A model generated the notes under the pieces. That model worked only from the letters and a program-made list of their open reading frames with translations. It had not been told where the DNA came from and made no database searches. Shown one piece after another: positions 4,776 through 34,351 of a stretch of 34,351 bases of DNA. Source of the DNA: a virus; IMG/VR virus record IMGVR_UViG_3300045988_172761, positions 1-34,351 of that record; one strand, written 5' to 3'. Position numbers and translations under genes: made by a program. Position 1 is the first letter of the stretch; every line of letters begins with the position of its first letter.

Positions 4776-5114
4776 GTGGCGATCGACGGCGTGACGGTCA
4801 ACGAGGACAACACCGAGGAGGCCTCGCAGGGCATCCAACGGGCGATAGACCGCGCCCTGGAGGAGATCGGCCTGGCGGCGGAGGGCTACGCCAAGCGCGC
4901 GTGCCCGGTGGACACGGGCCGTCTGCGCAACTCCATCACCCACGTGGTCGAGGGCTCCGAGGACGCCGTGTACGTGGGCACGGACGTGGAGTACGCGCCC
5001 TACGTCGAGCTGGGCACCCGCCGCACGGCGGCGCAGCCGTTCCTGCGGCCGGCGGCGACCGGGCACGGCCCGACCTACCGCTCGATACTCGAGAGGAACC
5101 TGGAGGAGGGGTAG
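4776..5114 (+). CDS. HK97 gp10-like phage protein (head-tail region component)
   Basis: 112 aa with GTG start and RBS gggagggagg. The motif VDTGRLRNSI is typical of the HK97-gp10-like family. Confidence 0.55.
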   Translation: MAIDGVTVNEDNTEEASQGIQRAIDRALEEIGLAAEGYAKRACPVDTGRLRNSITHVVEGSEDAVYVGTDVEYAPYVELGTRRTAAQPFLRPAATGHGPTYRSILERNLEEG

Positions 5115-5126
5115 CGCGCGGGTACC

Positions 5127-5474
5127 GTGTTGCATCATAGCAACACCGGATGCAACACGGCGCAGCGCCGCGTGCGGCCGTCAATGCAACGCGGGATGCA
5201 ACGGCCCTCCCGCCCCAGGTCAGAGCGTGTTGCACCGCTGCAACTGTCAAGGCGTTGCATAGTTGCACGCGCGTCCGGTCGCGGCTGTTGTATTGTATTG
5301 CACCCCCTTTGGGGGTGCAATACAATACAACACGCCCGACGCCTGCAACGCAACGGGACAACTTGCCCTCCCGCCACCCCCGTGTTACAATTTACCGGAA
5401 GGGCCGCGAGGCACTGCGGCGAGCCGGGCCCGAGGGAGAGGGCCCTAATCCGAGGGAATGGAGCGAGCGAGACC
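5127..5474 (+). promoter_or_regulatory. non-coding region with >10 TGCAAC/GTTGCA repeats, a 47-bp hairpin (5286..5332) and an extended -10 TGTTACAAT (5383..5391); putative activator-dependent late promoter for the scaffold and capsid genes
   Basis: There is no credible ORF in this region. The repeats are visible directly. The TGnTACAAT element has no good -35. A small GGGCCC hairpin follows before the scaffold RBS. Confidence 0.5.
5286..5332. repeat. perfect inverted repeat (22-bp arms, 3-nt loop): tgttgtattgtattgcaccccc ttt gggggtgcaatacaatacaaca
   Basis: The palindrome was checked base by base. Confidence 0.85.
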
Positions 5475-6047
5475 ATGGCACTGACGAGGAAGCTCCTGCG
5501 ATCCATGGGGATCGAGGACGACAAGATCGACCAGATCATCGAGGCGCACGGCGAGACCGTGAGCGCGCTGAAGGACGAGCGCGACCAGTACCGCGACGCG
5601 GCGGAGGCCCTGCCGAGCGTGCAGAAGGAGCTGGACGACCTGAAGGCCAAGCCGGGCGACGGCTACAGGGAGAGGTACGAGAAGGAGCACGCCGACTTCG
5701 AGGCGTTCCGCGCGGAGACCGAGAAGGCCGCCGGGGAGCGCGAGAAGCGCGGGCTGTACCGCAAGCTCCTGCAGGGGGCCGGGGTGGACCCGCACCGCCT
5801 GGACGCCGTCATGCGCGTGGCCGACCTGTCGGGCGTCGTGGTCGAGGACGGGAAGATCAAGGACGCGGACGAGCTGGCCGAGGCCGCGAAGAAGGAGTGG
5901 TCCGACTTCATCGTGCGGACCGACACCAAGCCCGCGCAGGTGGACGACCCGCCCGCCGGGGGAAGCGACCCGGCCAAGAAGGAGCCGCACTCCATCGCGG
6001 AGGCCATGCGGCAGAGGATGGCGGCGGGAGCCGCCCACGAAGACTAA
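5475..6047 (+). CDS. head scaffolding protein
   Basis: ~190 aa, acidic, rich in Glu/Lys/Ala/Arg and predicted helical, directly upstream of the major capsid gene. The ATG at 5475 follows RBS gagggaatggag. The longer track ORF starting at 5127 covers the repeat region and is rejected. Confidence 0.6.
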   Translation: MALTRKLLRSMGIEDDKIDQIIEAHGETVSALKDERDQYRDAAEALPSVQKELDDLKAKPGDGYRERYEKEHADFEAFRAETEKAAGEREKRGLYRKLLQGAGVDPHRLDAVMRVADLSGVVVEDGKIKDADELAEAAKKEWSDFIVRTDTKPAQVDDPPAGGSDPAKKEPHSIAEAMRQRMAAGAAHED

Positions 6048-14577: not shown

Positions 14578-15015
14578 ATGCTTAACTACGTAATAACGAC
14601 TGCTGTGACCACGATTATGGGCACCGTGATCGGCTGGCTGTTGAACGCGGTCAAAACCAACACCGCGCACTTGCATGACGCGTCGCGCCGTGAACACGAA
14701 GAGCGTGTACAGAATCGCGCTATACTCGGCGAGCTGCTGTTTTACCGGCTCGAGGATCTGCACCGGCGCTTTGTCATCGAAGGGTACCCATGCTCGGCTG
14801 CGGAGAAACAGCAGGTGGACCGGGTGTACCGGCACTACCATGACGAGCTGGGGCTCAACGGCCCCGGCACCCACATGTACGAGGAGATCATGGAGGCGCA
14901 CCAGAGCTACTCGGTCGGCGAGGGGTGGTTGACAACGGCCTCCGCCGGTGCTACAATGCAGGGCAAGGAGATTGACCTAGGAGGTCGAGACAGTGGAGTA
15001 CATGATCCCCGATAA
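14578..15015 (+). CDS. membrane-anchored protein of unknown function upstream of the holin (one N-terminal TM helix)
   Basis: 145 aa. An AT-rich intergenic region precedes it. RBS aagagg. The hydrophobic N-terminus is VITTAVTTIMGTVIGWLL. Confidence 0.4.
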   Translation: MLNYVITTAVTTIMGTVIGWLLNAVKTNTAHLHDASRREHEERVQNRAILGELLFYRLEDLHRRFVIEGYPCSAAEKQQVDRVYRHYHDELGLNGPGTHMYEEIMEAHQSYSVGEGWLTTASAGATMQGKEIDLGGRDSGVHDPR

Positions 15016-19107: not shown

Positions 19108-19422
19108 GTGCTGGACCTGTCTATCATCGAGGACGAGATAGCGGCGCTTGAGGAGGAGGGCAGCACCGACTACGAGACCTGCGGGATGCTGTCGTGCCTG
19201 TACTCGGTGCGCGACAACCTGCGGTCCCGCGCACGCGCGGAGGAGGGCCACGAGGGGCCCTCCTCCGAGTTCCTGGCCGCCTGCGTCGGGATCGACGTGC
19301 CGAGCCTTATGTCGGTGCTCGACGAGCACATGTCCGCGCTGCGCGTGGTGTACCCCGCCGAGTACCAGGCGGTGATGTCGAGGATCCGCCTACTCCACGA
19401 CGCCCATCAGGCGCAGGATTAG
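19108..19422 (+). CDS. hypothetical acidic protein, last gene of the plus-strand block
   Basis: GTG start after RBS gaggggagggga. ~104 aa. It converges with the minus-strand operon. Confidence 0.3.
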   Translation: MLDLSIIEDEIAALEEEGSTDYETCGMLSCLYSVRDNLRSRARAEEGHEGPSSEFLAACVGIDVPSLMSVLDEHMSALRVVYPAEYQAVMSRIRLLHDAHQAQD

Positions 19423-20574: not shown

Positions 20575-21626
20575 CACTCCGCCACCTCCGCGACGCTGTC
20601 GGGGCCGGTGCCGAAGTAGCGCACGCGGCCCGTCAGGCCGGCGGCCTCCAGGAACTCCGACATGGGCGCGCTGTCGCGCACCTGCGAGACGCTGCGCGTG
20701 CCCGCGAGCGCGGGGTCCACGTAGTCGCAGAAGGTGAGAGCGACCTCGGTCGGGGCGTTCAGCAGCTCCGACTGCCGGAACAGCTCCGGGTCCCAGTGGG
20801 CCACGCGGCGGACCTTGTGGGTCACCGTCGTGCGCTCCACGACCTGGTGCCCGACGCGCTCCGAGATCTCGCCCCACTCGGTCTCGCCCTCCATGGGGCC
20901 GGAGTTGCCCGCCACGCGGATGGGGAACGTGCGACAGACCATCAGCACGTCGGTCAGTCGCGACGGGGCCACCCCGACCTCCGAGATCATGCCCGCCGCG
21001 TTGGTGTCGACGCTGGTGCAGTAGGGCCAATGGGAGTGCAGCAGGCTGAGGCCCGAGCCCTGCGTGCCCTCGATCAGCACGTCCTCCCCGGCGTCCTGCC
21101 ACCCCGCGATCAGGCCCGGGGTGTTGTTCACGCAGCACACGCTGAGGCCGTAGTCGTCGCACACGTCCCCGAACAGGCGGAACTTCTCCGGGTCGCGCTC
21201 CAGGCGGGCGATCCTGGCGGGGCCCACCCCCTCACCGGTGGAGCCGATACGGCGGTGCATCTCGCCGTTGATCCCGCCCTCCTGCTCGTGGAACCTCTCA
21301 TCGAGGATCCCGGCGCAGGAGTCGATGTACAGGCGGCTCAGGAAGTCCGGGTAGTACTGCAGGATGTGCACCAGCTCGTTCATCAGCAGGCGCATGTTTA
21401 GCAGCGCCCCGCGCCCGATCACGATCTTGGCCTCCGGGTTGATCCACCCGCACGGGATCGACTGCATGACGTGCTTAGCGCCGTGCCAGTAGATCGTGTG
21501 GCCGGCGTTGGGGGAGCCCACGCGCACGTGGACGCTGTAGCGGTCGGCCACGTGGCGGGCGATCGCCCCCTTGCCCTCGCTGCCGTACTGGCCGCCCACC
21601 AGGGCGCACATCTTTCCTCTAGACAT
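20574..21626 (-). CDS. purZ: adenylosuccinate synthetase homologue, short form (PurZ-like, 2-aminoadenine pathway)
   Basis: 350 aa. The PurA-like P-loop reads MCALVGGQYGSEGKGA, with a GSTGEGVGPA motif. It is ~80 aa shorter than cellular PurA, as PurZ is, and sits next to the DUF550, HD and PolA genes. Confidence 0.65.
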   Translation of the reverse strand: MSRGKMCALVGGQYGSEGKGAIARHVADRYSVHVRVGSPNAGHTIYWHGAKHVMQSIPCGWINPEAKIVIGRGALLNMRLLMNELVHILQYYPDFLSRLYIDSCAGILDERFHEQEGGINGEMHRRIGSTGEGVGPARIARLERDPEKFRLFGDVCDDYGLSVCCVNNTPGLIAGWQDAGEDVLIEGTQGSGLSLLHSHWPYCTSVDTNAAGMISEVGVAPSRLTDVLMVCRTFPIRVAGNSGPMEGETEWGEISERVGHQVVERTTVTHKVRRVAHWDPELFRQSELLNAPTEVALTFCDYVDPALAGTRSVSQVRDSAPMSEFLEAAGLTGRVRYFGTGPDSVAEVAE

Positions 21627-22186: not shown

Positions 22187-24031
22187 TCACGATATCCCCT
22201 CCCGGGCCTCTGGGGCGCAGTCCGGTACCGGCGCCTCGCCGAGCCATGTCGGGCCGCCGTCCCAGTCATGGAACGTGCCCCAGGACCCTCCGTACTCGAT
22301 GTCCACCCCGACCGCCGGGACGAACTCGAAGTCCTCCATTATCAGCTTGATGGTTGGCAGCGCCACGTCGAGCGCCCCCTCCGGCACCTCGAATATCACC
22401 GAGTCGTGCACCTGCATCAGCAGGTGGCCCCCTATGTCGTGGATGGCCGGGTACAGGCGCGAGATCGCCACGCGGACGATCTCGGCCACGCCGCCCTGGA
22501 TCAGGTTGGACATAGCCTTGTGAGGGTCGGCCTCCGGCACGTTGAAGTGCCGGATGCGGCCCGTCCACATCTCGATGTAGCCGTACTGCTTGGCGAACTC
22601 CTCGCACTGGGACATCAGGCGGCGGAAGCCCGGGTACAGCGCGTGGTAACGCTCCAGGTAGTCGCGCGCCTGCTCCACTGGCTCCTTGAGGTTGTCCGCC
22701 AGCTTGCGGGCCCCGATGCCGTAGATGACCGAGAAGTTGAGGCGCTTCGCCGCGTTGCGCGGGATCCCCAGCAGCTCCGCCGTGGCGGAGTGCAGGTCCG
22801 CGCCGTCCTCGATCAGCTTGCGCATGGTCGGGTCCTGTGTGTAGTGCGTGACCAGGCGCATCTCGGCCTGCTTGTAGTCCGCCTGAATCATCACCATGCC
22901 GGGCCGGGCCGTGAACACGTCCTTGACCTTGAAGACCTCGGTGGCCTTGGCCACGGCCTGCAGGTTCGGGTGCGAGCACGACAGGCGGCCCGTGTAGGTG
23001 CCGATCAGGTTGAGGTTGCAGTGCAGCACGTCATCCTCGTCGGCCTGCTCCAGGTACGGCGTGTAGTATCGGCTGTTCACCGACAGCCACCCGCGCGCCT
23101 CCTGCACCAGCCGCGCGCGCTCCGCGCCCTCCCCGCCCGCGTCGATCAGGTCCTGCAGCACCGCCGCCGCGCTGGAGGTCGTCCCCAGGAACTCGCACAC
23201 GCGCTTGGGGCTGTTGGGGTTCAGGTCGAACCCAGCGGCCTCGTGCAGGGCCTTCACGGCCCTGGTGGCGTTGCCCTCGGCCTCGGCGCGGTAGTGCTCC
23301 AGCATGGGGCGGTCCACGTGCATGCCGCGCTGCTCCATCTGCACCACTACATAGTCGTAGTAGCACGCCTGGCGGAAGATCTCCTCCAGGCCCTGGGCAC
23401 GCAGCGCCTCGCGCAGGTAGCCCATGAGCTGCCGGGTGAGGCGCACGTCGTCGCAGGCGTAGGGTTCCACGTCGGCGGGTGGCAGGACATACATCATGGA
23501 CTTCACGTTGTGCTCGGCCCTGGGGGAGCGGCTGCACTCCAGGCCGAGGCGTCGGCACTCCTCGAACACCCTGTCCTCCAGGATCGACTCCTGCAGGGAC
23601 CCGTCCCCGATCCTATATCGGTCGCACACCTCCTTCAGCTTGAACGACGGCTCGTTCTCGTTGATCAGGTGCAGGGCGAGCATGGCGTCCTCGAACTTGG
23701 GCGGGATCGCGATCCCCTCCGCCGCCAGCATGTGCAGGTCGAAGCCGTAATTGAAGCCTAGGTACGTGCGGTGCTCGTCCGAGAGATAGCGCCCCAGGAA
23801 GCCGTCAGGATCCAGCAGCCCATCGGGCAGGTTGGCACCCTGCTCGTGCCGGAACGGGAAGTAGTACGCCTCGGTGCTGGTGTCGACGGAGATCCCTATC
23901 ACGCGGTCCCGGGCCCGGCCCGGACGCCCGAAGGCGTCCAGGCCGGTGGTCTCGGTGTCTACGCAGGGGTCCATGCACGCCAGGAGGTCAGGGGCTACCT
24001 CGCGCAGCTTGTCCAGCGTGTCGACCAGCAT
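22187..24031 (-). CDS. family A DNA polymerase (PolA-like, DpoZ candidate) with 3'-5' exonuclease domain
   Basis: 614 aa. The exonuclease motif is VDTETTGLD, motif A is DYKQAEMRLV and motif C is QVHDSVIFE. Confidence 0.9.
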   Translation of the reverse strand: MLVDTLDKLREVAPDLLACMDPCVDTETTGLDAFGRPGRARDRVIGISVDTSTEAYYFPFRHEQGANLPDGLLDPDGFLGRYLSDEHRTYLGFNYGFDLHMLAAEGIAIPPKFEDAMLALHLINENEPSFKLKEVCDRYRIGDGSLQESILEDRVFEECRRLGLECSRSPRAEHNVKSMMYVLPPADVEPYACDDVRLTRQLMGYLREALRAQGLEEIFRQACYYDYVVVQMEQRGMHVDRPMLEHYRAEAEGNATRAVKALHEAAGFDLNPNSPKRVCEFLGTTSSAAAVLQDLIDAGGEGAERARLVQEARGWLSVNSRYYTPYLEQADEDDVLHCNLNLIGTYTGRLSCSHPNLQAVAKATEVFKVKDVFTARPGMVMIQADYKQAEMRLVTHYTQDPTMRKLIEDGADLHSATAELLGIPRNAAKRLNFSVIYGIGARKLADNLKEPVEQARDYLERYHALYPGFRRLMSQCEEFAKQYGYIEMWTGRIRHFNVPEADPHKAMSNLIQGGVAEIVRVAISRLYPAIHDIGGHLLMQVHDSVIFEVPEGALDVALPTIKLIMEDFEFVPAVGVDIEYGGSWGTFHDWDGGPTWLGEAPVPDCAPEAREGIS

Positions 24032-25626: not shown

Positions 25627-26199
25627 CTACTTCTCGTCCACGTACGTCGCGGCCTCGTCGGCCACGTGCAGCAGCCAGGCCAGCGGGTTAGCCGCGTAGA
25701 CCGGGCTGGGGTTGCTGTAGCTGGTCGCGTCGAACTGCCCCATGTGGCAGTTGATCGCCGCCGCCTCCTCCGGGGACAGCTCCACGAAGTGCTGCACCAG
25801 GTAGACGCTCTTGGACCCGTGCCCACCGAAGGGGAACTTCTCCTCGAACTTGTAGCAGGGCACGCGGTGCCACTGCCCGCGCTCGTCCTTGACGTTGCGG
25901 AAGTCCCGCACGTAGCAGTCCGCCTTGCACACGTCGTGCAGCAGGGCGCACAGAGCCATCGACTCCTTGGCCAGGCCGAACCCGAGGCCGGCGTCGAGCT
26001 GCAGCAGGCGGTCGCACACCGCCAGCGAGTGCTCCACCAGCCCGCCCTCGTGCGCCCCGTGCCAGCGGGTACTGGCGGGGGCCTGGAAGAAGTCCGAGCC
26101 CTCCAGCCAGGCGATCAGGGCCTCCACCCCCTCCCTGCCGGTCGCGCGCAGCCTGTCCTCGAACTCGGAGGCGGCGTCGCTCAGAACCTCGTTTGCCAT
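25627..26199 (-). CDS. HD-domain phosphohydrolase (DatZ-like dNTP triphosphohydrolase candidate)
   Basis: 190 aa. HD motifs are HEGGLVEHSL and LLHDVCK. RBS agaggagaag. It is the first gene of the operon behind promoter 26230..26259. Confidence 0.75.
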   Translation of the reverse strand: MANEVLSDAASEFEDRLRATGREGVEALIAWLEGSDFFQAPASTRWHGAHEGGLVEHSLAVCDRLLQLDAGLGFGLAKESMALCALLHDVCKADCYVRDFRNVKDERGQWHRVPCYKFEEKFPFGGHGSKSVYLVQHFVELSPEEAAAINCHMGQFDATSYSNPSPVYAANPLAWLLHVADEAATYVDEK

Positions 26200-26264: not shown

Positions 26265-27338
26265 CTATTTCCGGTGCTCTTTCCGAGTGTACTGGCGCTG
26301 CCGCACGTCGTCCGCGTCGTACCCGCGCAGCTCCACCTGGCACAGGTCGCGGAACTGGCAGCCCCGACAGTTCCAGGGGAACATGGAGCGGCGGCTGCCG
26401 CCCTTCGAGGAGCGGCGGACGCCCCACGAGGCGGGAACGACCACCTGATCCCAGATCGCGCGCACGGTCTCGGGGGAGCGCAGCTCGTAGGTCTCGCGGA
26501 ACCACTCCACGTCCGCGAGCTTCCCCTCCATCTCCGCGTAGTCGGCGGGGTCCAGCCCCTGCTGCTCCACGAACGCGCGGTAGTGGGCCCACGTGGTTCG
26601 CACGCGGGCGCGGGACACCCCGCTCTTGGTGAGCGCCGGGTCGGCGGCGGGCACGTTCAGGTGCTGCCAGGTGAGCGTGCCCACCACGTCCGCCCCCATG
26701 CGCTCGCAGGCCCTCATGTACACCGCGTTCTGCAGCGAGAACTGCTCCTCCTCAGGATCCTCCAGCTGCGAGCGAAACTTGTAGTCCACGCACCAGGCGT
26801 GGCCGGTCTCGCGGTCGCGCAGGATCGCGTCGACGTAGCCGTGCAGGCCCTTGGATCCCGCGCAGGGGACCAGGAAGTGCAGCTCCAGGGCGGGGCGCTC
26901 CTGACCGTCGCCGCCGACCACGGTCAGCACCTCCCAGCGCGCGGGGTCGAACTCGGCGAGCGCCTGCCCGAACACCGCGAGCGCGTCCTGGAGGCGCTGC
27001 TGGAACTCCGGCAACTCCTCGGGCAGCAGGTCCACCCCCGACAGGTACCGGTCGTGCTCCTCGCGTATCCGGGCCTCCCCCACGCCGATCAGCTCCCGCA
27101 GGTCGCCGTCGGCGACGGCCCCGTGCTCCACCATCCACGCGTGGCGCATGGCCGCCTCGAACCCGGCGTGGCAGAGCTTGCCGATCGTCAGGTACGGGCG
27201 CTCCACGCGGGGCGCTAGCCCCTCCAGGTAGCCGTACTCCCACCTCTTGGCGCAGGCCATCCAGCTCTGCAGCTGCGTGGCCGACACCATCCCCTCGGGC
27301 GACGCGCCCTCGGGGTACAGGCACTTGGTCTCTCTCAT
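26265..27338 (-). CDS. PD-(D/E)XK exonuclease, Cas4/RecB-like, with C-terminal Cys cluster
   Basis: 357 aa from MRETKCLYPE (RBS aggaggaccgag; ATGA overlap with the PrimPol stop). A nuclease core (DYKF) and a C-terminal C..CxxC..C Cys cluster (MFPWNCRGCQFRDLC) are present. The N-terminal extension in the track is a GC artefact. Confidence 0.65.
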   Translation of the reverse strand: MRETKCLYPEGASPEGMVSATQLQSWMACAKRWEYGYLEGLAPRVERPYLTIGKLCHAGFEAAMRHAWMVEHGAVADGDLRELIGVGEARIREEHDRYLSGVDLLPEELPEFQQRLQDALAVFGQALAEFDPARWEVLTVVGGDGQERPALELHFLVPCAGSKGLHGYVDAILRDRETGHAWCVDYKFRSQLEDPEEEQFSLQNAVYMRACERMGADVVGTLTWQHLNVPAADPALTKSGVSRARVRTTWAHYRAFVEQQGLDPADYAEMEGKLADVEWFRETYELRSPETVRAIWDQVVVPASWGVRRSSKGGSRRSMFPWNCRGCQFRDLCQVELRGYDADDVRQRQYTRKEHRK

Positions 27339-29140
27339 CCCTCGGTCCTCCTGAACTTTCCGTCCGGCATCCTCTCCACCATGCCCGCCGCCTCCAGCTG
27401 CCGGATCTGCCGGGAGACGGTGGACCTGTTCTTGCCCGTGGCCTGGACAAGCTCCGCCTGGGTCATCGGCGACTCGCGGATGATGTCCAGCAGCGAAGCC
27501 TGGGCGGGCTTGCGCTGCCCCTGTCCCGGGGCCGCCTGATAGTCGCGCACGTCCACGCGGTAGCGCATGGGGTGCACCGTGCTGATGTCGAAGGTGAGCG
27601 ACACCGGCGGCTGGTTGCCCATGACCTTCGAGTGCCTGCGCACCACCACCTCGTTGTCGGCTAGGCGCGGGTTGCGTCGGATCTGCCAGCCCGCCTCCAG
27701 GAAGGCGTTCAGGAACTGCGATCCCCACGAGTCCTCGCGGGCCGTGCTGTCGGGGTCGATGTTCTTCCGCGAGTGGTGAGCGATCAAAAACGAGCACCCG
27801 TAGCGGTCGCGCCAGGTCTTGAGCACCATCATCTGATTGGCGAGATCGGCCATGTAGCCGTCCACCGAGGAGGTGGTGGAGTACAGGGGGTCGATCAGCA
27901 CGACCTTGGGGTGGATCGCCTCTATCTGCTTCTCCAGCTCCTCCAGCACACGCTCGTTATCGAACCGCAGCATGCGGGAGGGGTGCACGTAGATCGGCAA
28001 GTCCGGCATGACCGGTATCCTCCACTCGTCGCCGTCGATGTCCTCCAGCGAGCTGGTCTTCTGCTCCACGATCAGCGCCAGGCGGTCGGTCAGGCCCGCA
28101 TGGCTGTCCTCCTGCTGGATGATCATCGTGGGGCCGGGGTCGTTGACGCGGTAGCGCCCAAGGAACGGCACGCCCGCCGACACCGACACCGCCAGGTCGA
28201 GAAGCAGCCAGGTCTTGTAGCTCTCGGGCGGGCTGACCAGGAACGTGATCGACGCGTCCGGCAGCCAGTCGTCCACGAGCCAGTGCACGCCGCCGCCGCC
28301 GTAGCCCTTCACGTAGTCCACCATCCGCATCACGTCGAAGGTCGACCCCTCCGCCCGCTCCTCCGCCGTGCGGTCGTCCTCGAACTGCACGGAGGTGAAC
28401 TGCTCGCCGCCCAGCGCGTGGGACCGCTCGATGGAGCGCACCGTGGTGCGCACCTCACGGGCGGGCATCGGCGGGTCGTTGCGCTCGTTCCACTCCTGCA
28501 GCAGCGCCTCCACGATGTCGCTCTCCAGGCCCTTCTTGAAGAAGTACCCGGCCAGTCGCGCGCACGTGTCGTTGCGCCCTCCCTCGGACACCCCGCGCAG
28601 GGCCTCGGCGATCCAGCCGTCGCCCTCGCGGGAGGAGGGCTGCGCCCGCATGTCCAGCAGCTCGCGCGGGAACGGCCCCGGCGCGCCCTGCTCCACCCAC
28701 TCGTAGCGGTTGCCGCTCGCGTGGCGGGTCGGGGGCAGCACGATGAAGCCGCCGTCGGCGCGCAGGTCCGCGCCCTCGAAGATCCGCACCCGGTTGGAGA
28801 CCCGGCCCACGCCCTGGGGGTAGGAGTAGAACAGGTGATAGCCGCCCGACCCGGTGCGGCTCACCATCCGGGTGGGCCACCTGCGCAGCAACTCCCCCAC
28901 GGGGGTCGGGCAGTCGGCCTCGACGTCCAGCACCACCATGCCGGATACCTTGCCGGTGACCACTCCCACGCCCGCCCCGGTCAGCGCGGCGAACCACTGC
29001 TCGACCTGCCGGCGCGGGGCCCGCTGGTGGGTGTACTGCAGCCAGTTGCCCATGTAGGGGCGCTTCTCGTCCGGGCGCACGGGGAGCACGGACCACCCCC
29101 GGTCCACGTACTCCAGCGCCAGCCTACTCGTCTCGTCCAC
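27335..29140 (-). CDS. bifunctional primase-polymerase (PrimPol N-domain) + P-loop NTPase + C-terminal winged HTH
   Basis: 601 aa. The N-terminus (LPVRPDEKRPY, GGYHLFY) is PrimPol-like. The middle carries a RecA-like P-loop (SPPESYKT) with DxxQ/HH motifs. The C-terminus has a MarR-like wHTH (TQAELVQATGKNRSTVSRQIRQLE). Confidence 0.7.
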   Translation of the reverse strand: MDETSRLALEYVDRGWSVLPVRPDEKRPYMGNWLQYTHQRAPRRQVEQWFAALTGAGVGVVTGKVSGMVVLDVEADCPTPVGELLRRWPTRMVSRTGSGGYHLFYSYPQGVGRVSNRVRIFEGADLRADGGFIVLPPTRHASGNRYEWVEQGAPGPFPRELLDMRAQPSSREGDGWIAEALRGVSEGGRNDTCARLAGYFFKKGLESDIVEALLQEWNERNDPPMPAREVRTTVRSIERSHALGGEQFTSVQFEDDRTAEERAEGSTFDVMRMVDYVKGYGGGGVHWLVDDWLPDASITFLVSPPESYKTWLLLDLAVSVSAGVPFLGRYRVNDPGPTMIIQQEDSHAGLTDRLALIVEQKTSSLEDIDGDEWRIPVMPDLPIYVHPSRMLRFDNERVLEELEKQIEAIHPKVVLIDPLYSTTSSVDGYMADLANQMMVLKTWRDRYGCSFLIAHHSRKNIDPDSTAREDSWGSQFLNAFLEAGWQIRRNPRLADNEVVVRRHSKVMGNQPPVSLTFDISTVHPMRYRVDVRDYQAAPGQGQRKPAQASLLDIIRESPMTQAELVQATGKNRSTVSRQIRQLEAAGMVERMPDGKFRRTEG

Positions 29141-29360
29141 TGCCTACCTCCGCAGGGTCCACGAAGATCTCGTAGGTGTGCACCTTGTACACCCCGGCGT
29201 ACTTCTCGATCGCGTCCTGGCTCAGGCCCCGGCTGCAGTTCTCGTGGCGCGAGATCGCGGCCACCGAGATGCCGGTGAGCGTGGACACCTCATCCTGCGT
29301 CAGGCGCGAGCGGTCGCGCAGCTCGCGCAGCCTGTTGCGGGGGGCCCCGTTGTCCTTCAT
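29124..29360 (-). CDS. XRE-family HTH transcriptional regulator (Cro/CI-type fold)
   Basis: 78 aa from MKDNG with RBS agaggagagag. The HTH reads LTQDEVSTLTGISVAAISRHEN. Confidence 0.65.
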   Translation of the reverse strand: MKDNGAPRNRLRELRDRSRLTQDEVSTLTGISVAAISRHENCSRGLSQDAIEKYAGVYKVHTYEIFVDPAEVGSGRDE

Positions 29361-29381
29361 ACTCTCTCCTCTCTGATCGGT

Positions 29382-29406
29382 TGCACCGTTGCACCGTTGC
29401 AACGAC
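29382..29406. promoter_or_regulatory. three direct TGCAAC repeats (TGCAAC-GG-TGCAAC-GG-TGCAAC on the minus strand) at the transcription start / 5' UTR of the XRE gene; candidate operator
   Basis: On the plus strand: gttgcaccgttgcaccgttgcaacg. The same hexamer populates the two late intergenic regions. Confidence 0.4.
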
Positions 29407-32543: not shown

Positions 32544-32572
32544 ATCATAGCACGTGTGGGCGGGGTTGTCAA
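32544..32572 (-). promoter_or_regulatory. sigma70-type promoter TTGACA-N17-TATGAT overlapping the palindrome TGTCAAG-N6-CTTGACA, within a GGGGCGG...CCGCCCC hairpin (32556..32598)
   Basis: -35 at 32567..32572, -10 at 32544..32549. The flanking GC inverted repeat may also terminate the upstream gene's transcript. Confidence 0.45.
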
Positions 32573-32603
32573 GTACTCTCTTGACAGACTCCGCCCCACG
32601 GCC

Positions 32604-33224
32604 TCAGCAGCCAGGCAGGCGGTACCCCGCCGCGCGCAGCACCTGCTCGCCCCTCTCGGTGAGGCGCATGGCCTTCGCCCTCCGCGAGCGCCCGGTCGCG
32701 CCGTCCTCGCGCGGCTCGGCCCAGACCCGGATCAGGCCCTTCTCGCGCAGGGTGCTGACCATCGCGCCGAAGGGCATGCCGCCGACGCCCATCTCGTCGA
32801 GCAGCACGTCGGTCCACACGGTGCCGTCGCCCCCGGCCCAGCAGGGGCAGCCGCCCGCGGCCCGCAGGAACTCGCACTGCCGCGCGGTCAGCGTCACGCC
32901 CGACGGCGCGTGCTCGAAGGCCACGTCGCGGCTGCGGCGCCCGCGCGGGCGCCCCTCCCGGGCCCCCGAGGCCCCCCCGTCGGCCCCGGGCGCGGGGTCC
33001 GGCACCTGGGCCGGGGCGGCGTCCCCGCGGGCCCCGGAGGCCGCCCCGGAGGCCTCGTCGGCCACCCTCGCCAGGCGCGCGCCCAGCTCCTCGTAGTGCG
33101 CCCCGCGCGCCTCGTCGAACTCGGCGCGGGACACGCGCCTGCCGTCCCGGAAGCAGTAGCCGCCCCGCGTCCTGCGCCACCTGCTGCCGCCCTGCTCGAA
33201 CGTTACCTCCGCCTGCTGTGCCAT
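32604..33224 (-). CDS. hypothetical protein, first substantial early gene
   Basis: 206 aa with RBS ggaggacgac. Contains GGCPCWAGG. No recognisable domain. Confidence 0.45.
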   Translation of the reverse strand: MAQQAEVTFEQGGSRWRRTRGGYCFRDGRRVSRAEFDEARGAHYEELGARLARVADEASGAASGARGDAAPAQVPDPAPGADGGASGAREGRPRGRRSRDVAFEHAPSGVTLTARQCEFLRAAGGCPCWAGGDGTVWTDVLLDEMGVGGMPFGAMVSTLREKGLIRVWAEPREDGATGRSRRAKAMRLTERGEQVLRAAGYRLPGC

Positions 33225-33233
33225 GTCGTCCTC

Positions 33234-33329
33234 CTATCCCGCGCGCCCCGTCATGCAGCGCCTGGTGCGCCCGGACACGCGGCGCGGGCTGTCCTTGACT
33301 ACCACCCTGAACTGCCTGTAGTTCCCCAT
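33234..33329 (-). CDS. possible 31-aa basic leader peptide / small protein (MGNYRQFRVVVKDSPRRVSGRTRRCMTGRAG)
   Basis: A strong RBS ggagggagg sits 6 nt before the ATG, directly after promoter 33371..33399. Confidence 0.25.
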   Translation of the reverse strand: MGNYRQFRVVVKDSPRRVSGRTRRCMTGRAG

Positions 33330-33370
33330 CTCGGGCCTCCCTCCTGTCAACTTCCCTCTTGACATAAATA

Positions 33371-33399
33371 ATCGTACCATGCCCGCAGGACATTGTCAA
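33371..33399 (-). promoter_or_regulatory. sigma70-type promoter TTGACA-N17-TACGAT driving the leftward early operon, embedded in TGTCAAG-N6-CTTGACA and TGTCAA-N8-TTGACA inverted repeats (33345..33412)
   Basis: -35 at 33394..33399, -10 at 33371..33376. A divergent TTGACA is also present on the plus strand. Confidence 0.45.
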
Positions 33400-33439
33400 G
33401 TCTCGACTTGACACTTCTACACAAGGTCTACACACGCCG

Positions 33440-33827
33440 ACCAGCAGCGGACGGGGCGCGTTGCATTGCACCGTTGCGCGGTGTTGCACCGGTGCACGCG
33501 CGGCCCCGGGAGGGGTCGTCGCGCGCCCTCGCGTTGCTACAATGCAACAGAGAATGCAACGCGACATGCTCTCTTGACACCTGTCAACGCCCGCGAGCGC
33601 CCCGCACGCCCTCCGACCTGGGGCGCCTCCACGCACTGTCAAGTGTTGCATGATTGCACACCGCGTTGGTTGCGTGTGTTGCATTGCATTGCAATCCCCT
33701 TGGGGATGCAATGCAATGCAACACGCAACGCCGGCCGTGCAACGGCGCACGCGCGGGGTGGACGGGGCGGCGCGGGCGTGTTACAATGCGGGGAGAGCGC
33801 AGAGAGGAGGTGGGCGCGCTGCCCTAC
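33440..33827 (+). promoter_or_regulatory. non-coding region with ~15 TGCAAC/GTTGCA repeats, a TTGACA-CC-TGTCAA palindrome, a 49-bp hairpin (33666..33714) and an extended -10 TGTTACAAT (33779..33787); putative activator-dependent late promoter upstream of terS
   Basis: The architecture parallels 5127..5474. It also contains gttgctacaatgcaac and gtgcacgcgcg elements shared with that region. Confidence 0.5.
33666..33714. repeat. near-perfect inverted repeat (gtgttgcattgcattgcaatcccc tt ggggatgcaatgcaatgcaacac; one bulged base)
   Basis: Verified by reverse-complementing the arms. Confidence 0.8.
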
Positions 33828-34351
33828 ATGGAGTTTCCCAAGAGCAACCGGGGCGCGATCGAGCGCAAGCGGTTCTGGCTGTCGGACGACGGCCTGGCGC
33901 TGATCGCGGGCTTCCGCCGCGAGGGCATGACCATGGAGGAGATCTACAACGGCCAGGTCGGGGTGTCCTCGACCACGTGGCGCTCGTGGCTCGCCTCCAG
34001 CGACGGGCTGCGCGAGGCGATCGCCCAGACCGACGAGCAGGTCAACTGCCTGGTGGAGCGCGCGCTGCTGCGCCGCGCCCTGGGCTACGAGGTCGTGGAG
34101 GAGGACGAGGAGCTGGTGGAGGGCGAGATGCGCGTGGTGCGCCGCCGCCACCGGCACGTGCCGCCCGACACCAAGGCCCAGCTCGCGTGGCTCTACTCGC
34201 GCCGCGCCGACCGTTGGCGCGCGAGCCAGGACCCGCGCGACGCCACGACCGAGCAGCTGCGCGCGGTGGACGCCGTGGTGGTGTCGATCGCCCACGCCTC
34301 GGTCCTGCCGGATGGCGCGGACCCTCAACCTCAAGTAGAGGTCGAGGGTTC
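33828..34351 (+). CDS. terS: terminase small subunit (HTH-containing), truncated by the window end and continuing at 1..41
   Basis: This ORF is missing from the six-frame track because it has no in-window stop. Translation reads MEFPKSNRGAIERKRFWLSDDGLALIAGFRREGMTMEEIYNGQVGVSS...; the size, the position before terL and the N-terminal HTH-like segment fit TerS. RBS agagaggagg. Confidence 0.65.
   Translation, partial: MEFPKSNRGAIERKRFWLSDDGLALIAGFRREGMTMEEIYNGQVGVSSTTWRSWLASSDGLREAIAQTDEQVNCLVERALLRRALGYEVVEEDEELVEGEMRVVRRRHRHVPPDTKAQLAWLYSRRADRWRASQDPRDATTEQLRAVDAVVVSIAHASVLPDGADPQPQVEVEG
34327..34351. repeat. 25-bp sequence identical to 1..25
   Basis: Direct comparison. Confidence 0.9.

Follow-up and report, generated by a model that had tools for sequence, protein, structure and literature searches.

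What is the role of a noncoding stretch that is crowded with TGCAAC hexamers, holds a long palindrome and lies directly upstream of terS in an uncultured phage? The initial annotation had read this stretch (positions 33440-33827, here region A) as the classic layout of an activator-dependent late promoter that recurs at 5127-5474 (region B, upstream of the scaffold and capsid genes), with one DNA-binding protein, possibly an XRE-family regulator, activating both late promoters and repressing its own gene. The window, i.e., the whole stretch of DNA analysed (34,351 nt), is a circular phage genome of 34.3 kb with a 25-bp terminal overlap. Its PurZ-like, DpoZ-like and HD genes hint at possible 2-aminoadenine DNA. 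The features referred to in the text are:

33458-33500, unstranded: distal site cluster GCGTTGCATTGCACCGTTGCGCGGTGTTGCACCGGTGCAC, with GTTGCA at 33460 and 33483; kept with rearrangements in the close relatives L333-L335
33531-33560, unstranded: operator-like triple site GTTGCT-ACAA-TGCAAC-AGAGAA-TGCAAC; conserved in L333-L335
33574-33587, unstranded: palindrome TTGACA-CC-TGTCAA, confirmed; intact in just two of four close relatives
33597-33626, plus strand: G+C-rich imperfect stem GCGCCCC...GGGGCGC
33637-33659, unstranded: block TGTCAA-GT-GTTGCA-TGA-TTGCAC, directly left of the large palindrome; its region B counterpart lies at 5245-5267
33676-33724, plus strand: near-perfect palindrome or hairpin of 49 nt, from inverted-repeat search, single-stranded DNA folding and clade-wide conservation
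33738-33743, plus strand: TGCAAC half-site on the promoter side, 3' of the palindrome; a degenerate GCAACG lies at 33725-33730
33759-33787, plus strand: terS promoter, sigma-70-type (TGGACG, 17 nt, TG-n-TACAAT), 9/12 with extended -10
33828-34351, plus strand: terS, 179 aa, running on across the circular junction to base 41 and overlapping the start of terL
5127-5158, unstranded: site array GTGTTGCA-TCAT-AGCAAC-ACCGGA-TGCAAC; conserved in L333-L335
5185-5202, unstranded: TGCAAC-N6-TGCAAC; conserved in L333-L335
5229-5244, unstranded: GTTGCA-CCGC-TGCAAC; conserved in L333-L335
5245-5267, unstranded: TGTCAA-GGC-GTTGCA-TA-GTTGCA; conserved in L333-L335
5278-5340, plus strand: palindrome or hairpin with core 5287-5333; T-A pairs where region A has C-G
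5344-5355, plus strand: TGCAAC-GCAACG half-sites, 3' of the region B palindrome
5363-5391, plus strand: promoter of the scaffold/capsid operon, sigma-70-type (TTGCCC, 17 nt, TG-n-TACAAT), 9/12
27338-29140, minus strand: primase-helicase, 601 aa, with Prim-Pol, PriCT_1, AAA_25 and a C-terminal MarR/ArsR-type winged helix; candidate binder
29127-29360, minus strand: XRE-family HTH protein, 78 aa; candidate binder of the initial annotation
29380-29403, minus strand: GTTGCAAC palindrome and TGCAAC-GG tandem repeats (period 8, 2.8 copies), at about +4 to +27 of the XRE/Prim-Pol promoter
32607-33224, minus strand: early protein, 206 aa; third candidate binder

A cis-module shared by uncultured phages

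The description of region A as free of credible reading frames held: all ORFs in 33393-33827 are flat in G+C over the codon positions (0.58-0.71), and terS has a GC3 of 0.95 and a ribosome-binding site, AGAGAGGAG, at 33801-33809. In region B, the scaffold gene starts with the ATG at 5475, behind a conserved leader of 83 nt shared with relatives, whose scaffold homologues match Pfam Phage_scaffold. The architecture does recur, as had been proposed, and regions A and B are two copies of one conserved cis-module.

A DNA similarity search with positions 33300-34351 gave 0 matches among GenBank phages, and a search for related loci with terS as query found none. Protein searches with terL and the primase-helicase returned distant relatives only, all below 50% identity, which points to a lineage without a cultured member. 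The hairpins of relatives were located by exact pattern scans for the hairpin arm. All true copies in IMG/VR, JGI metagenomes and ENA contigs fell in relatives of this phage, with G+C contents of 43-69%; two metagenome loci with hairpin-like matches (L402 and L448) were rejected as pentamer satellite DNA. Among the matches listed in a scan of genome contigs, chance ones dominated, many of them in Nostoc, and no prophage or host was identified. TGCAAC arrays are also present in three unrelated contigs (L012, L024 and L051).

The hairpins occupy three syntenic sites: 5' of terS, whose homologues adjoin the hairpin in relatives; 5' of the scaffold gene; and, in relatives only, 3' of the primase-helicase gene, directly or with one gene between. 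This third hairpin lies within the early operon, ~15 nt 5' of a ribosome-binding site and with no promoter beside it. The window itself has no hairpin site beside its primase gene, and the module count per genome is two to three. At gathering score, Rfam gave no match for the whole window, and below threshold it gave generic miRNA-hairpin matches only, on 33665-33737. The cis-module is a sharply delimited, lineage-specific element, near-invariant in sequence across uncultured phages of 43-69% G+C; it is absent from Rfam and has no relative that is cultured or annotated. Public versions of the relatives' terS that extend through the hairpin are likely mis-annotations, which are corrected here.

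Since region A lies immediately 5' of terS, the module might be a packaging signal (pac or cos), with the small terminase subunit binding repeats 5' of its own gene. Small terminases do bind short-repeat arrays, e.g., SPP1 pac and lambda cosB. Instead of a single terS-linked site that co-evolves with terS, however, we found a near-identical module 5 kb away at the scaffold gene and a third in the replication module of relatives. Moreover, terS is only 38-65% identical among relatives while the motif is invariant, and L323 has retained the module even with a terL of only 29% identity and without a detected terS homologue. A packaging signal is therefore very improbable. The Butyrivibrio phage Ceridwen shares the synteny of the head module and has a different replication module; motif clusters and hairpin are both absent from it, and terminators are predicted at the equivalent intergenic positions.

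Short binding sites and a large palindrome

The window contains 25 exact copies of TGCAAC/GTTGCA, against 10.0 ± 3.3 expected from dinucleotide shuffles (0 of 100 shuffles reached 25). Eight lie in region A, nine in region B, four at 29380-29403 and four elsewhere, with local Poisson P values of 6e-13, 3e-15 and 1e-10 for the three clusters; 21 of the 25 fall in 2.2% of the window. Away from the clusters, hexamer density in the window and in relatives corresponds to background (185 copies against 156 expected), and site avoidance was rejected because the hexamer is not depleted there. This agrees with the proposal that enrichment is confined to three loci. The initial figure of ~15 copies in region A applies to the five-letter core TTGCA/TGCAA (8 + 7) and not to exact hexamers, of which there are eight. 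Each cluster was counted as 8-9 hexamers plus six pentamer units, and among the noncoding repeats of the window we found no further array suited to an origin.

A de novo search for k-mers overrepresented beside the hairpins yielded ATRCAACAC, enriched up to 44-fold. This short site, with the core TRCAAC, is mostly arranged as inverted pairs (GTTGYA-N3-4-TRCAAC), next to which additional half-sites lie at distances of 8 or 12 bp. Across relatives, the spacing peaks of inverted pairs are 2, 9-10 and 22 bp, those of direct pairs are 8, 12 and 17 bp, and everted pairs are rare. The triple site at 33531-33560, an inverted pair with a 4-bp spacer and a third half-site 12 bp further, displays the main peaks (inverted 9-10 bp, direct 12 bp). 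At the Y/R position of the small palindromes there was no covariation (C..A 12, T..G 6, matched 16). Given the spacing peaks and the lack of covariation, the GTTGYA-N3-4-TRCAAC palindromes behave as putative double-stranded DNA binding sites. The 'TGCTACAAT' at 33535 was rejected as a -10 element, as it is part of the GTTGCT-ACAA-TGCAAC binding-site palindrome.

The two longest inverted repeats of the window are the hairpins at 33676-33724 and 5287-5333 (extendable to 5278-5340), with folding z scores of -7.0 and -10.5 as single-stranded DNA; the first was confirmed at the 49 nt originally given for it. It carries three TTGCA units per arm at 5-nt spacing, with one extra A in the 5' arm, and its apex consists of a CCCC/GGGG stem with a 2-4-nt loop at CTTG (33697-33700). 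The flanks 33666-33675 and 33725-33732 lengthen the region A stem. Across the clade, the palindrome measures ~48 nt with a stem of 22-24 bp, of which the lower part is near-invariant and the apical part variable but paired. The apical insert takes 31 distinct sequences in 35 elements, 27 of which are more self-complementary than 95% of shuffles, and as the 35 elements share ancestry, these counts overstate independent events. Paired C-G to T-A changes separate region A from region B and the window from L335. On the strength of the apical complementarity and these paired changes, the large palindrome looks like a structure in which intrastrand pairing is kept. Arm-to-arm template-switch correction in quasi-palindromes can mimic such compensatory change without selection for structure. 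RNAalifold on a MAFFT alignment shifted the register by one 5-nt unit owing to the internally repetitive arms, so per-sequence folds were used and no covariance model.

The hairpin also has a polarity. The sense strand forms the more stable hairpin in 29 of 35 elements, among them all six from the site located on the other strand of the genome; relative to the genome background (54% against 36%), this bias has a binomial P of 0.003, and strand-biased mutation could be a partial cause. Site units are more numerous downstream than upstream in 29/35 elements, the reverse holding in two. The polarity is not absolute, since the element of L212 is inverted relative to its flanking genes. Strand-specific hairpin, conserved lower stem and tolerant upper stem, as in ssi-type single-strand priming hairpins such as RSF1010 ssiA/ssiB and G4 oric, are all present. 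For the smaller stem at 33597-33626, changes among close relatives are not compensatory, and at this position low-G+C relatives carry a small hairpin with a T-rich tail behind it.

Promoters, candidate binders and the role of the module

The extended -10 element TGTTACAAT occurs at 33779 and 5383 and nowhere else in the window, as expected from the first description, which had also stated that no usable -35 is present. This second point was not upheld: TGGACG (33759-33764) and TTGCCC (5363-5368) match 4/6 at 17-bp spacing, and both promoters reach 9/12 with the TG. Their counterparts in the relatives scanned reach 12/12 (L234, L240), 11/12 (L258, L253) and 9/12 (L224). Those at 11-12/12 have the form TTGACA-17/18-TGnTATAAT, and the same consensus was seen by eye in further relatives. 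From the hairpin centre to the -35, the distance is mostly 50-81 nt, with a range from ~40 (L271) to ~200 nt (L077, L213), and the downstream TRCAAC is missing in L253 and L271.

These data bear on the originally proposed late activator, possibly XRE, that would bind TGCAAC, drive two -35-less late promoters and repress its own gene. Consistent with it, the two array-linked promoters have the weakest -35 (4/6) among seven promoter-like sites in the window, the arrays lie 5' of the -35 in the position of an activator, and the motif is found at the XRE promoter. However, neither a missing -35 nor a fixed activator-site position was found: the relatives' promoters score 9-12/12, four of five at 11-12, their distance to the hairpin varies and no activator gene adjoins terS. 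The XRE promoter lacks the motif in L001, L216, L222 and L323, the XRE recognition helix varies while the motif is constant, and the intrastrand pairing kept in the palindrome is left without explanation. A classic activator-dependent late promoter is thus quite unlikely.

Could the hairpin act in RNA? It might terminate or attenuate transcription without the help of a U-tract, serve as a site of RNase III processing or of stabilisation, or act in antitermination, forming with the promoter a cassette like the PeSLs of T4-type phages, whose order of stem-loop, sigma-70 promoter, Shine-Dalgarno and start codon is the same (PMC4122927). The greater stability on the sense strand, the position of the relatives' early-operon copy ~15 nt 5' of a ribosome-binding site and the terminators predicted for Ceridwen at equivalent intergenic positions agree with this. 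On the other hand, scans of 33200-33900 and 5050-5550 found nothing terminator-like, no T-run follows any copy of the hairpin in the window or relatives, and neither the window nor the relatives scanned showed a convincing rightward promoter that would feed the terS-proximal hairpin. In L240 and L253, canonical terminators precede the arrays, and for this reason the large hairpin is probably seldom transcribed there. An RNA element would also leave the flanking sites in two orientations, their helical phasing and their lack of covariation unaccounted for, and no Rfam family matches. We regard this alternative as unlikely.

If the sites act in double-stranded DNA, which protein binds them? Considering both orientations and the preferred spacings, one sequence-specific candidate protein for all three loci is the simplest reading, and this part of the initial proposal stands; the choice of XRE is weak. 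The hexamer is indeed present at the XRE promoter: the GTTGCAAC palindrome and three tandem TGCAAC-GG units lie between the promoter of the XRE/Prim-Pol operon (TTGACA-18-TACAAT, 29436-29407, minus strand) and the ribosome-binding site of the XRE gene. Three units in the window correspond to two in L334 and one in L333. The case for XRE as binder is weak because this motif is limited to the G+C-rich subclade, in one to three copies, and because the start of the recognition helix varies among relatives (58-74% identity of the protein) while the motif is constant; a comparison of recognition-helix variants with early-promoter operators gave no clear match pattern.

The winged helix of the primase-helicase (residues ~540-601, bases 27338-27523) appears to be the best candidate binder. 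It follows a variable Pro/Gly/Gln linker, and its recognition helix, RST(V/I)SRQIRQLEAAG, is invariant but for one V/I position in 6/6 relatives recovered. In the 206-aa early protein, the C-terminal region (...VGAMVSTLREKGL...) is winged-helix-like by eye, and the protein has no Pfam or PHROG match. Candidate target DNAs for the putative binders are GTTGCATCATAGCAACACCGGATGCAAC, the linear palindrome and the folded hairpin.

Any of these three early proteins might also use the arrays as repressor operators, much as in multi-site repression of the stoperator or omega type. It would silence or insulate the intrinsically strong late promoters, along with its own operon, and titration or inactivation of the protein would lift this block. 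In every relative, arrays stand directly 5' of the two late promoters. At 29380-29403, the motif copies overlie the beginning of the XRE/primase transcript, as is usual for a repressor, and the inverted-repeat geometry fits a dimeric HTH protein. Near-consensus late promoters would call for negative rather than positive control, and orientation to transcription is kept, as in stoperators (PMC9283540). Nevertheless, the -35 and -10 elements of both late promoters are free of overlapping sites, more than ten sites per promoter are unusually many, and other consensus promoters of the window (14929, 26259, 32572) have no arrays. Repression would further leave unexplained the sense-strand stability bias, the promoter-less hairpin in the relatives' early operon and, barring template-switch correction, apical complementarity with changing sequence. 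We consider a pure operator array, the main rival of the reading favoured below, possible but less likely than not.

Overall, the module resembles a site where a phage DNA-binding protein is loaded and exerts control, more than it resembles an activator-dependent late promoter of the classic kind. The reading that we favour, with a probability of about 0.4, is an iteron and hairpin loading site for the phage's Prim-Pol/helicase/winged-helix protein. The hexamers would be iterons for a phage-encoded DNA-binding domain, with the winged helix tethered to the hexameric primase-helicase as best candidate. At the core, the palindrome would form its structure on the sense strand when this is exposed; in the case of replication outward from the terS-proximal site, the sense strand is the lagging-strand template. 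Once folded, the palindrome may act as the loading or priming site for the primase-helicase. A strong promoter firing away from it, or a divergent pair in the case of the terS site, would generate negative supercoiling and ease opening. At the TGCAAC repeats of its own operon, the same protein may cause autorepression, and at the arrays it may gate or insulate the two late promoters.

Several observations support a loading site: the clustering of repeated sites in noncoding DNA, as in iteron origins, with the motif confined to these clusters; hairpins at syntenic sites only, one of which, in relatives, follows the primase-helicase gene; the double-stranded-site behaviour of the small palindromes next to the structure-like large one and its polarity; the conserved recognition helix of the primase-helicase; the canonical terminators ahead of the arrays in L240 and L253; the lack of motif clusters and hairpin in Ceridwen with its different replication module; and the retention of the module in L323 despite the 29%-identical terL. 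The cumulative GC-skew minimum at ~33.6 kb, inside the terS-proximal site, is compatible with an origin yet confounded with the switch in gene orientation, just as strand polarity is confounded with transcription direction. The loading-site reading is weakened by hexamers far shorter than classical 17-22-bp iterons, by the window having no site at its primase gene and by the missing A+T-rich unwinding element. We found none beside the palindromes in the window, where the 45 nt from palindrome to -10 are ~80% G+C, and in relatives only the promoters are A+T-rich. In addition, two to three origin-like sites in 34 kb, always 5' of late promoters, would more naturally suggest transcription control.

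More speculative, and in our view doubtful, is that the palindromes are strand-specific loading or priming hairpins for a single-chain primase-helicase-winged-helix protein in a small multi-origin phage, possibly with 2-aminoadenine DNA, whose initiator gates the late promoters and its own operon. In a bolder variant, palindromes and protein roadblocks would replace A+T-rich unwinding elements and U-tract terminators, the reason being that dZ:rU hybrids and Z:T pairs resist melting; the canonical terminators in L240 and L253 weaken this variant.

If the primase-helicase does bind, one compact protein would couple origin recognition, priming, unwinding and promoter control, and this would account for replication and late-gene cassettes travelling together during packaging-gene exchange. 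The module offers a testable handle on how this lineage starts replication, on late-gene timing, or on both, comprising three candidate binders, a 9-nt site and a hairpin of defined polarity.

Comparison with known systems

PeSL cassettes of T4-type phages place an intergenic stem-loop just 5' of a sigma-70-like promoter, Shine-Dalgarno and start codon (PMC2839356, PMC4122927). At two of our phages' three sites, the parts stand in this order, and like PeSLs, the module is kept at module junctions despite a change of neighbouring genes (L323). PeSL stems are short, sequence-variable and read as terminators. In contrast, the phage stem of 22-24 bp has a near-invariant lower part and no U-tract, with hexamer arrays on its flanks; it occurs only two or three times in a genome, and at the third phage site there is no promoter.

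The omega protein of pSM19035 binds contiguous heptad arrays, commonly with the heptads in direct or converging orientation and rarely with diverging ones. The TRCAAC sites follow the same preference. Stoperators of cluster A mycobacteriophages likewise involve one protein and many short sites, located at promoters as well as within operons, whose orientation matters, but these are single asymmetric 13-bp sites at ~30 places (PMC9283540, PMC6550527). Rather than one-orientation asymmetric sites spread over many gaps, we found both orientations in three clusters, and neither stoperators nor omega sites include a conserved long palindrome.

At the IncQ (RSF1010) oriV, RepC reportedly binds iterons, the RepB' primase recognises the ssiA/ssiB palindrome and RepA is the helicase. 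The phage module resembles oriV in its short-repeat clusters and large palindrome, and its hairpins would be strand-specific priming sites. On the phage side, an archaeo-eukaryotic-type primase (Prim-Pol), the AAA_25 helicase, which we take to belong to the RepA-like family, and a DNA-binding domain are joined in one chain. The module differs in its 6-9-bp rather than 20-bp repeats, in a copy number of two to three where oriV is single, in having no A+T-rich segment and in the strong promoter beside each copy.

In P4 alpha protein (ori, crr) and SaPI Rep, a C-terminal winged-helix or specificity domain of the primase-helicase binds short iterons, which are split over ori and crr in P4 or lie just 3' of the rep gene in SaPI. 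The phage shares with them a primase-helicase with C-terminal winged helix and, in relatives, a site 3' of the primase gene. Unlike the phage sites, neither the P4 iterons (TGTTCACC) nor the SaPI hexamers surround a long palindrome. The sequences are unrelated, and the type of primase differs (Toprim in P4).

Finally, SV40 GAGGC pentamers, papillomavirus E1 sites and HSV oriS/oriL are palindromic core origins with overlapping short initiator sites. The initiator at such viral core origins is a hexameric helicase and also a transcription regulator, and HSV has several origins per genome. The phage module shares the 5-6 bp units on both arms of a palindrome and the location between or beside divergent promoters; as these are eukaryotic viruses with unrelated proteins, the likeness is architectural only. 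The proposed dual role as initiator and operator-bound regulator recalls both omega of pSM19035 and SV40 T antigen, of which the phage initiator would, if this reading is true, be the bacterial-virus counterpart.

Gene layout and hexamer clusters in the window

The two ends of the window (68% G+C) carry the same 25-base direct repeat (AACCTCAAGTAGAGGTCGAGGGTTC; 1-25 and 34327-34351), and we therefore regard it as a circular assembly of ~34,326 bp.

Gene layout of the window
33828, across the junction, to base 41, plus: terS, 179 aa; its stop overlaps the terL ATG
38-1345, plus: terL
after terL, plus: SPP1-type portal gene
2927-4591, plus: MuF/ADP-ribosyltransferase fusion; C-terminal toxin domain PF03496, 5.8e-17
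4776-5114, plus: HK97-gp10-like protein
ATG at 5475, after a 360-bp gap, plus: scaffold
downstream of scaffold, plus: major capsid protein, tail genes, GH25 lysin
33224 down to ~19400, minus: gene block, comprising
from its start at 33224, minus: 206-aa protein and several small proteins
within the block, minus: SNF2 helicase gene and 78-aa XRE gene
within the block, minus: 601-aa Prim-Pol/PriCT_1/AAA_25/winged-helix protein (primase-helicase)
within the block, minus: PD-(D/E)XK nuclease, HD protein, AAA_24, DUF669
within the block, minus: family A DNA polymerase and short PurA/PurZ-like enzyme

Given this layout, the region flagged by the initial annotation (33440-33827, upstream of terS; region A) falls in the 604-bp gap from which the early and the late operon diverge. 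The window has 25 exact copies of TGCAAC/GTTGCA versus 10.0 +/- 3.3 in shuffles: eight copies in region A, nine in 5127-5474 upstream of the scaffold gene (region B), four at 29380-29403 and four elsewhere (Poisson P of the local counts in the three clusters <= 1e-10). The predicted confinement to three loci was thus borne out, with 21 of 25 copies in clusters and background density outside them. The ~15 copies claimed for region A hold for the 5-mer core only. At the third locus (minus strand, 29436-29360), TTGACA-18-TACAAT is followed by GTTGCAAC-GG-TGCAAC-GG-TGCAAC, a ribosome-binding site and the start of the gene for XRE, a helix-turn-helix protein; the hexamer does therefore recur here, between promoter and gene start.

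No inverted repeat of the genome is longer than the hairpin of region A (33676-33724) or its twin in region B (5287-5333). The shared architecture proposed for the two regions is supported. Folded as single-stranded DNA, both give z scores of -7 to -10.5 versus shuffles on either strand. TGTTACAAT occurs twice in the window, at 33779 and 5383. Codon-position G+C is flat in all ORFs of region A, versus a GC3 of 0.95 in terS, in agreement with the view that it holds no credible ORF. Public gene calls in three close relatives (L333 8488-9183, L334 8385-8981, L335 8728-9315) lengthen terS upstream by 16-52 codons, through the promoter into the palindrome; these starts are probably wrong, because the matching window stretch has flat codon-position G+C.

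Several other features of the layout were noted. The C-terminal end of MuF appears variable, since the MuF proteins of relatives range from 321 to 685 aa. The PurA/PurZ-like enzyme (20577-21626, minus; 233 bits on NCBIfam PurZ, under the cut-off of 300; phrog_1211, 8.7e-68) is accompanied by the family A polymerase (22190-24031, minus; sub-threshold matches to the DpoZ models) and a gene for an HD-domain protein (25630-26199, minus); the set resembles that of 2-aminoadenine (Z-genome) phages, a putative assignment. The first early ORF past the leftward promoter (33234-33329, minus; MGNYRQFRVVVKDSPRRVSGRTRRCMTGRAG) has just 31 codons and appears to be a truncated copy; its counterpart in close relatives has 66-67 aa and an identical beginning. 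Between the converging ends of the late and early operons, a 12-bp inverted repeat without mismatches (CGGAGGAGGGCC N6 GGCCCTCCTCCG, 19238-19267) may be a bidirectional transcription stop, though without a T-run. Close relatives have DNA methyltransferase genes with no counterpart in the window (L333 15351-15923, an MT-A70 gene that separates XRE from its TGCAAC-bearing promoter; L334 18731-19456, a D12-class gene ahead of the polymerase).

Conservation of the palindrome and its flanking sites

No close relative was found among GenBank phages. Exact hairpin-arm scans of IMG/VR gave many chance matches, and true loci were taken as those with both arms as a palindrome (30); all 30 encode homologues of window proteins (30-79% identity; G+C 42-66%). 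A JGI metagenome scan added six palindrome loci, while two hairpin-like loci were rejected as false positives from satellite DNA. Searching with the 206-aa protein returned 74 homologues, many on 33-38-kb contigs, and both regions were kept in all three contigs examined. No Rfam family matches the element. The head-module synteny, with the long gap ahead of the scaffold gene, extends to Butyrivibrio phage Ceridwen, which has another replication module; motif clusters and hairpin are both absent from it. In all loci, the hairpin is confined to three syntenic places.

Syntenic places of the hairpin
Site 1: ahead of terS
Site 2: in the gap that separates the gp10-like gene from the scaffold gene
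Site 3 (relatives only): within the early operon, past the primase-helicase gene; ~15 nt beyond the hairpin come a TRCAAC and the next gene's ribosome-binding site

The large palindrome behaves differently from the small sites around it. Its lower stem (GTGTTGYATTGYATTGCA / TGCAATRCAATRCAACAC) hardly varies across elements. The apical 13-23 nt comprise 31 distinct sequences in 35 elements with self-complementarity kept, exceeding 95% of shuffles in 27 of 35 (the remainder are mostly weak CATT/AATG-type stems), and paired C-G to T-A changes distinguish region A from region B as well as the window from L335. The element has a polarity: read in the direction of the flanking genes, its 3' side is richer in units in 29 elements versus 2. 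Hairpin stability favours the sense strand in 29/35 elements (mean difference 3.6 kcal/mol), including all six site-3 copies, where sense is the opposite genomic strand; random 80-nt stretches of the genome give a background of 54% vs 36% (P ~0.003 if shared ancestry is ignored). In contig L212 (IMGVR_UViG_3300011005_000116, 1950-2021), the site-2 element and flanks are inverted relative to L210-type phages, with the neighbouring genes unflipped. Palindrome arms also resemble a promoter, TTG(Y)AA-17-TACAAT (9/12 matching -35 and -10 bases at L234 845-873 and L240 7517-7489; ~8/12 at 5298-5326 in region B), which may merely follow from the likeness of the motifs, or may be a weak promoter inside the palindrome.

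K-mer enrichment in the flanks, hairpin core excluded, yielded ATRCAACAC (TGCAAC 19.6-fold, TACAAC 14.6-fold, 7-mers up to 44-fold). Converging site pairs peak at spacings of 2 bp (GTTGCAAC), 9-10 bp (GTTGYA-N3-4-TRCAAC, 49 cases) and 22 bp, direct pairs at 8, 12 and 17 bp; few pairs diverge. Within the small palindromes, Y and R change independently of each other (C..A 12, T..G 6, matched 16), which fits double-stranded protein sites rather than RNA stems. Dense arrays of the same hexamer also occur in unrelated IMG/VR contigs of 63-65% G+C (L012 ~300-450, L024 14450-14612, L051 2150-2350), ahead of a small-protein gene whose product reads like a helix-turn-helix (MQKLVALNENGRRIGESHPRAKL...); they may represent independent use of the hexamer.

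Promoters and level of action

The initial annotation had interpreted region A as an activator-dependent late promoter with no usable -35. In fact, a -35 hexamer with 4/6 matches lies 17 bp from each -10 element, and both sites were called promoter-like in the scan. No other promoter-like site of the window has a -35 hexamer as weak as these two next to the arrays. However, the promoter downstream of the hairpin matches 12/12 bases in L234 and L240, 11/12 in L258 and L253, and 9/12 in L224, and TTGACA-17/18-TGnTATAAT was seen by eye in L218, L220, L271, L313 and L323. Such near-consensus promoters need no activator, so the main argument for this model falls and we consider it quite unlikely. 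The -35 to hairpin-centre distance is mostly 50-81 nt, with extremes of ~40 and ~200 nt. The window holds seven promoter-like sites versus 1-2 expected by chance; the five beyond the late promoters score 10-11/12 and all lie in intergenic gaps.

Other sigma-70-like sites in the window
14929-14957, plus: lysin, no array
26259-26230, minus: HD gene, no array
32572-32544, minus: second early promoter, no array
29436-29407, minus: XRE promoter
33399-33371, minus: leftward early promoter

The XRE-promoter motif is present in the window, L334, L333 and L211 and absent from L001, L216, L222 and L323, dropping from three units to one among close relatives. Three TGTCAA-N8-TTGACA palindromes (32567-32586, 33345-33364, 33394-33413) look like operators for a different regulator: two lie on either side of the leftward early promoter core and the third overlaps the -35 of the second early promoter. 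They are shared by G+C-rich relatives, with TTGCACAA...TTGTGCAA in their place in low-G+C relatives. The 83-nt scaffold leader (5392-5474), conserved in L077, L210, L213 and L239, contains a stem-loop, GAGACA-type repeats and ...CCCGAAGAAAAGGAGA ahead of the ATG, and may be a translational control element.

An RNA-level hairpin or a PeSL-like terminator-promoter cassette would account for the order of parts, which agrees with that described for PeSLs (PMC4122927), but the flanking sites and the missing U-tract do not fit, making it unlikely. No T-run follows any hairpin copy in the window or relatives, and no rightward promoter able to transcribe the site-1 hairpin was found in the window or scanned relatives. 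In L240 and L253, a canonical hairpin with T-run separates the upstream gene from the arrays, so the large hairpin is not needed as a terminator there, and is probably not transcribed much. Together with the helically phased sites in two orientations, this points to an element working at the DNA level. Repressor or insulator operator arrays would explain position and geometry well but leave the structure of the palindrome unexplained; we regard them as the main rival, somewhat less probable than the leading reading. Given the conserved intrastrand pairing and the polarity, a simple operator seems less apt than a cruciform or a hairpin formed on exposed single-stranded DNA.

A candidate loading site and known systems

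A terminase recognition site is very improbable; terS shows poor conservation, and L323 retains the module with no terS homologue detected. The 206-aa protein shows 28-45% identity over its aligned C-terminal part, with a fairly constant putative recognition segment, and XRE 58-74%, with variable residues at the recognition-helix start. The primase-helicase ends in a winged helix reading RST(V/I)SRQIRQLEAAG in all relatives recovered, behind a variable Pro/Gly/Gln linker. Since an invariant site would pair with an invariant reader, we infer that the primase-helicase is the favoured binder.

Our leading reading, with a probability of about 0.4, is that the hexamer arrays would act as iterons for this protein and the palindrome as a structure-forming core for loading or priming. 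Negative supercoiling would come from the promoters that fire away from the palindrome, and the hairpin polarity would correspond to the lagging-strand template if forks depart site 1 both ways. The cumulative GC-skew minimum at ~33.6 kb fits this reading, and no other candidate origin array was found in the window. Against it stand the number and position of sites, the very short repeats and the fact that transcription direction confounds both skew and polarity; an A+T-rich element is lacking. Quasi-palindrome template-switch correction and strand-biased mutation may also yield structure-like signals.

Short-repeat arrays with a palindrome serving a phage DNA-binding protein are a known kind of element. 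As far as our searches show, this form has not been described: a 9-nt site and a hairpin of 48 nt and fixed polarity, each arm of which holds three 5-nt units, in 2-3 syntenic copies each beside a sigma-70-type promoter (close to consensus in the majority of scanned relatives), conserved over 43-69% G+C within an uncultured lineage. The proposed combination of repeats, palindrome and primase/helicase has an analogue in IncQ oriV, with its iterons, ssiA/ssiB palindrome, RepA helicase and RepB' primase, which belongs to the same superfamily as the phage Prim-Pol protein. Further analogues are P4, whose alpha protein uses a winged helix to bind short iterons at ori and crr, two loci that lie apart; SaPI origins, just 3' of rep; and the SV40, papillomavirus and HSV origins, where 5-6-bp units lie on palindrome arms between divergent promoters and the initiator doubles as a transcription regulator.
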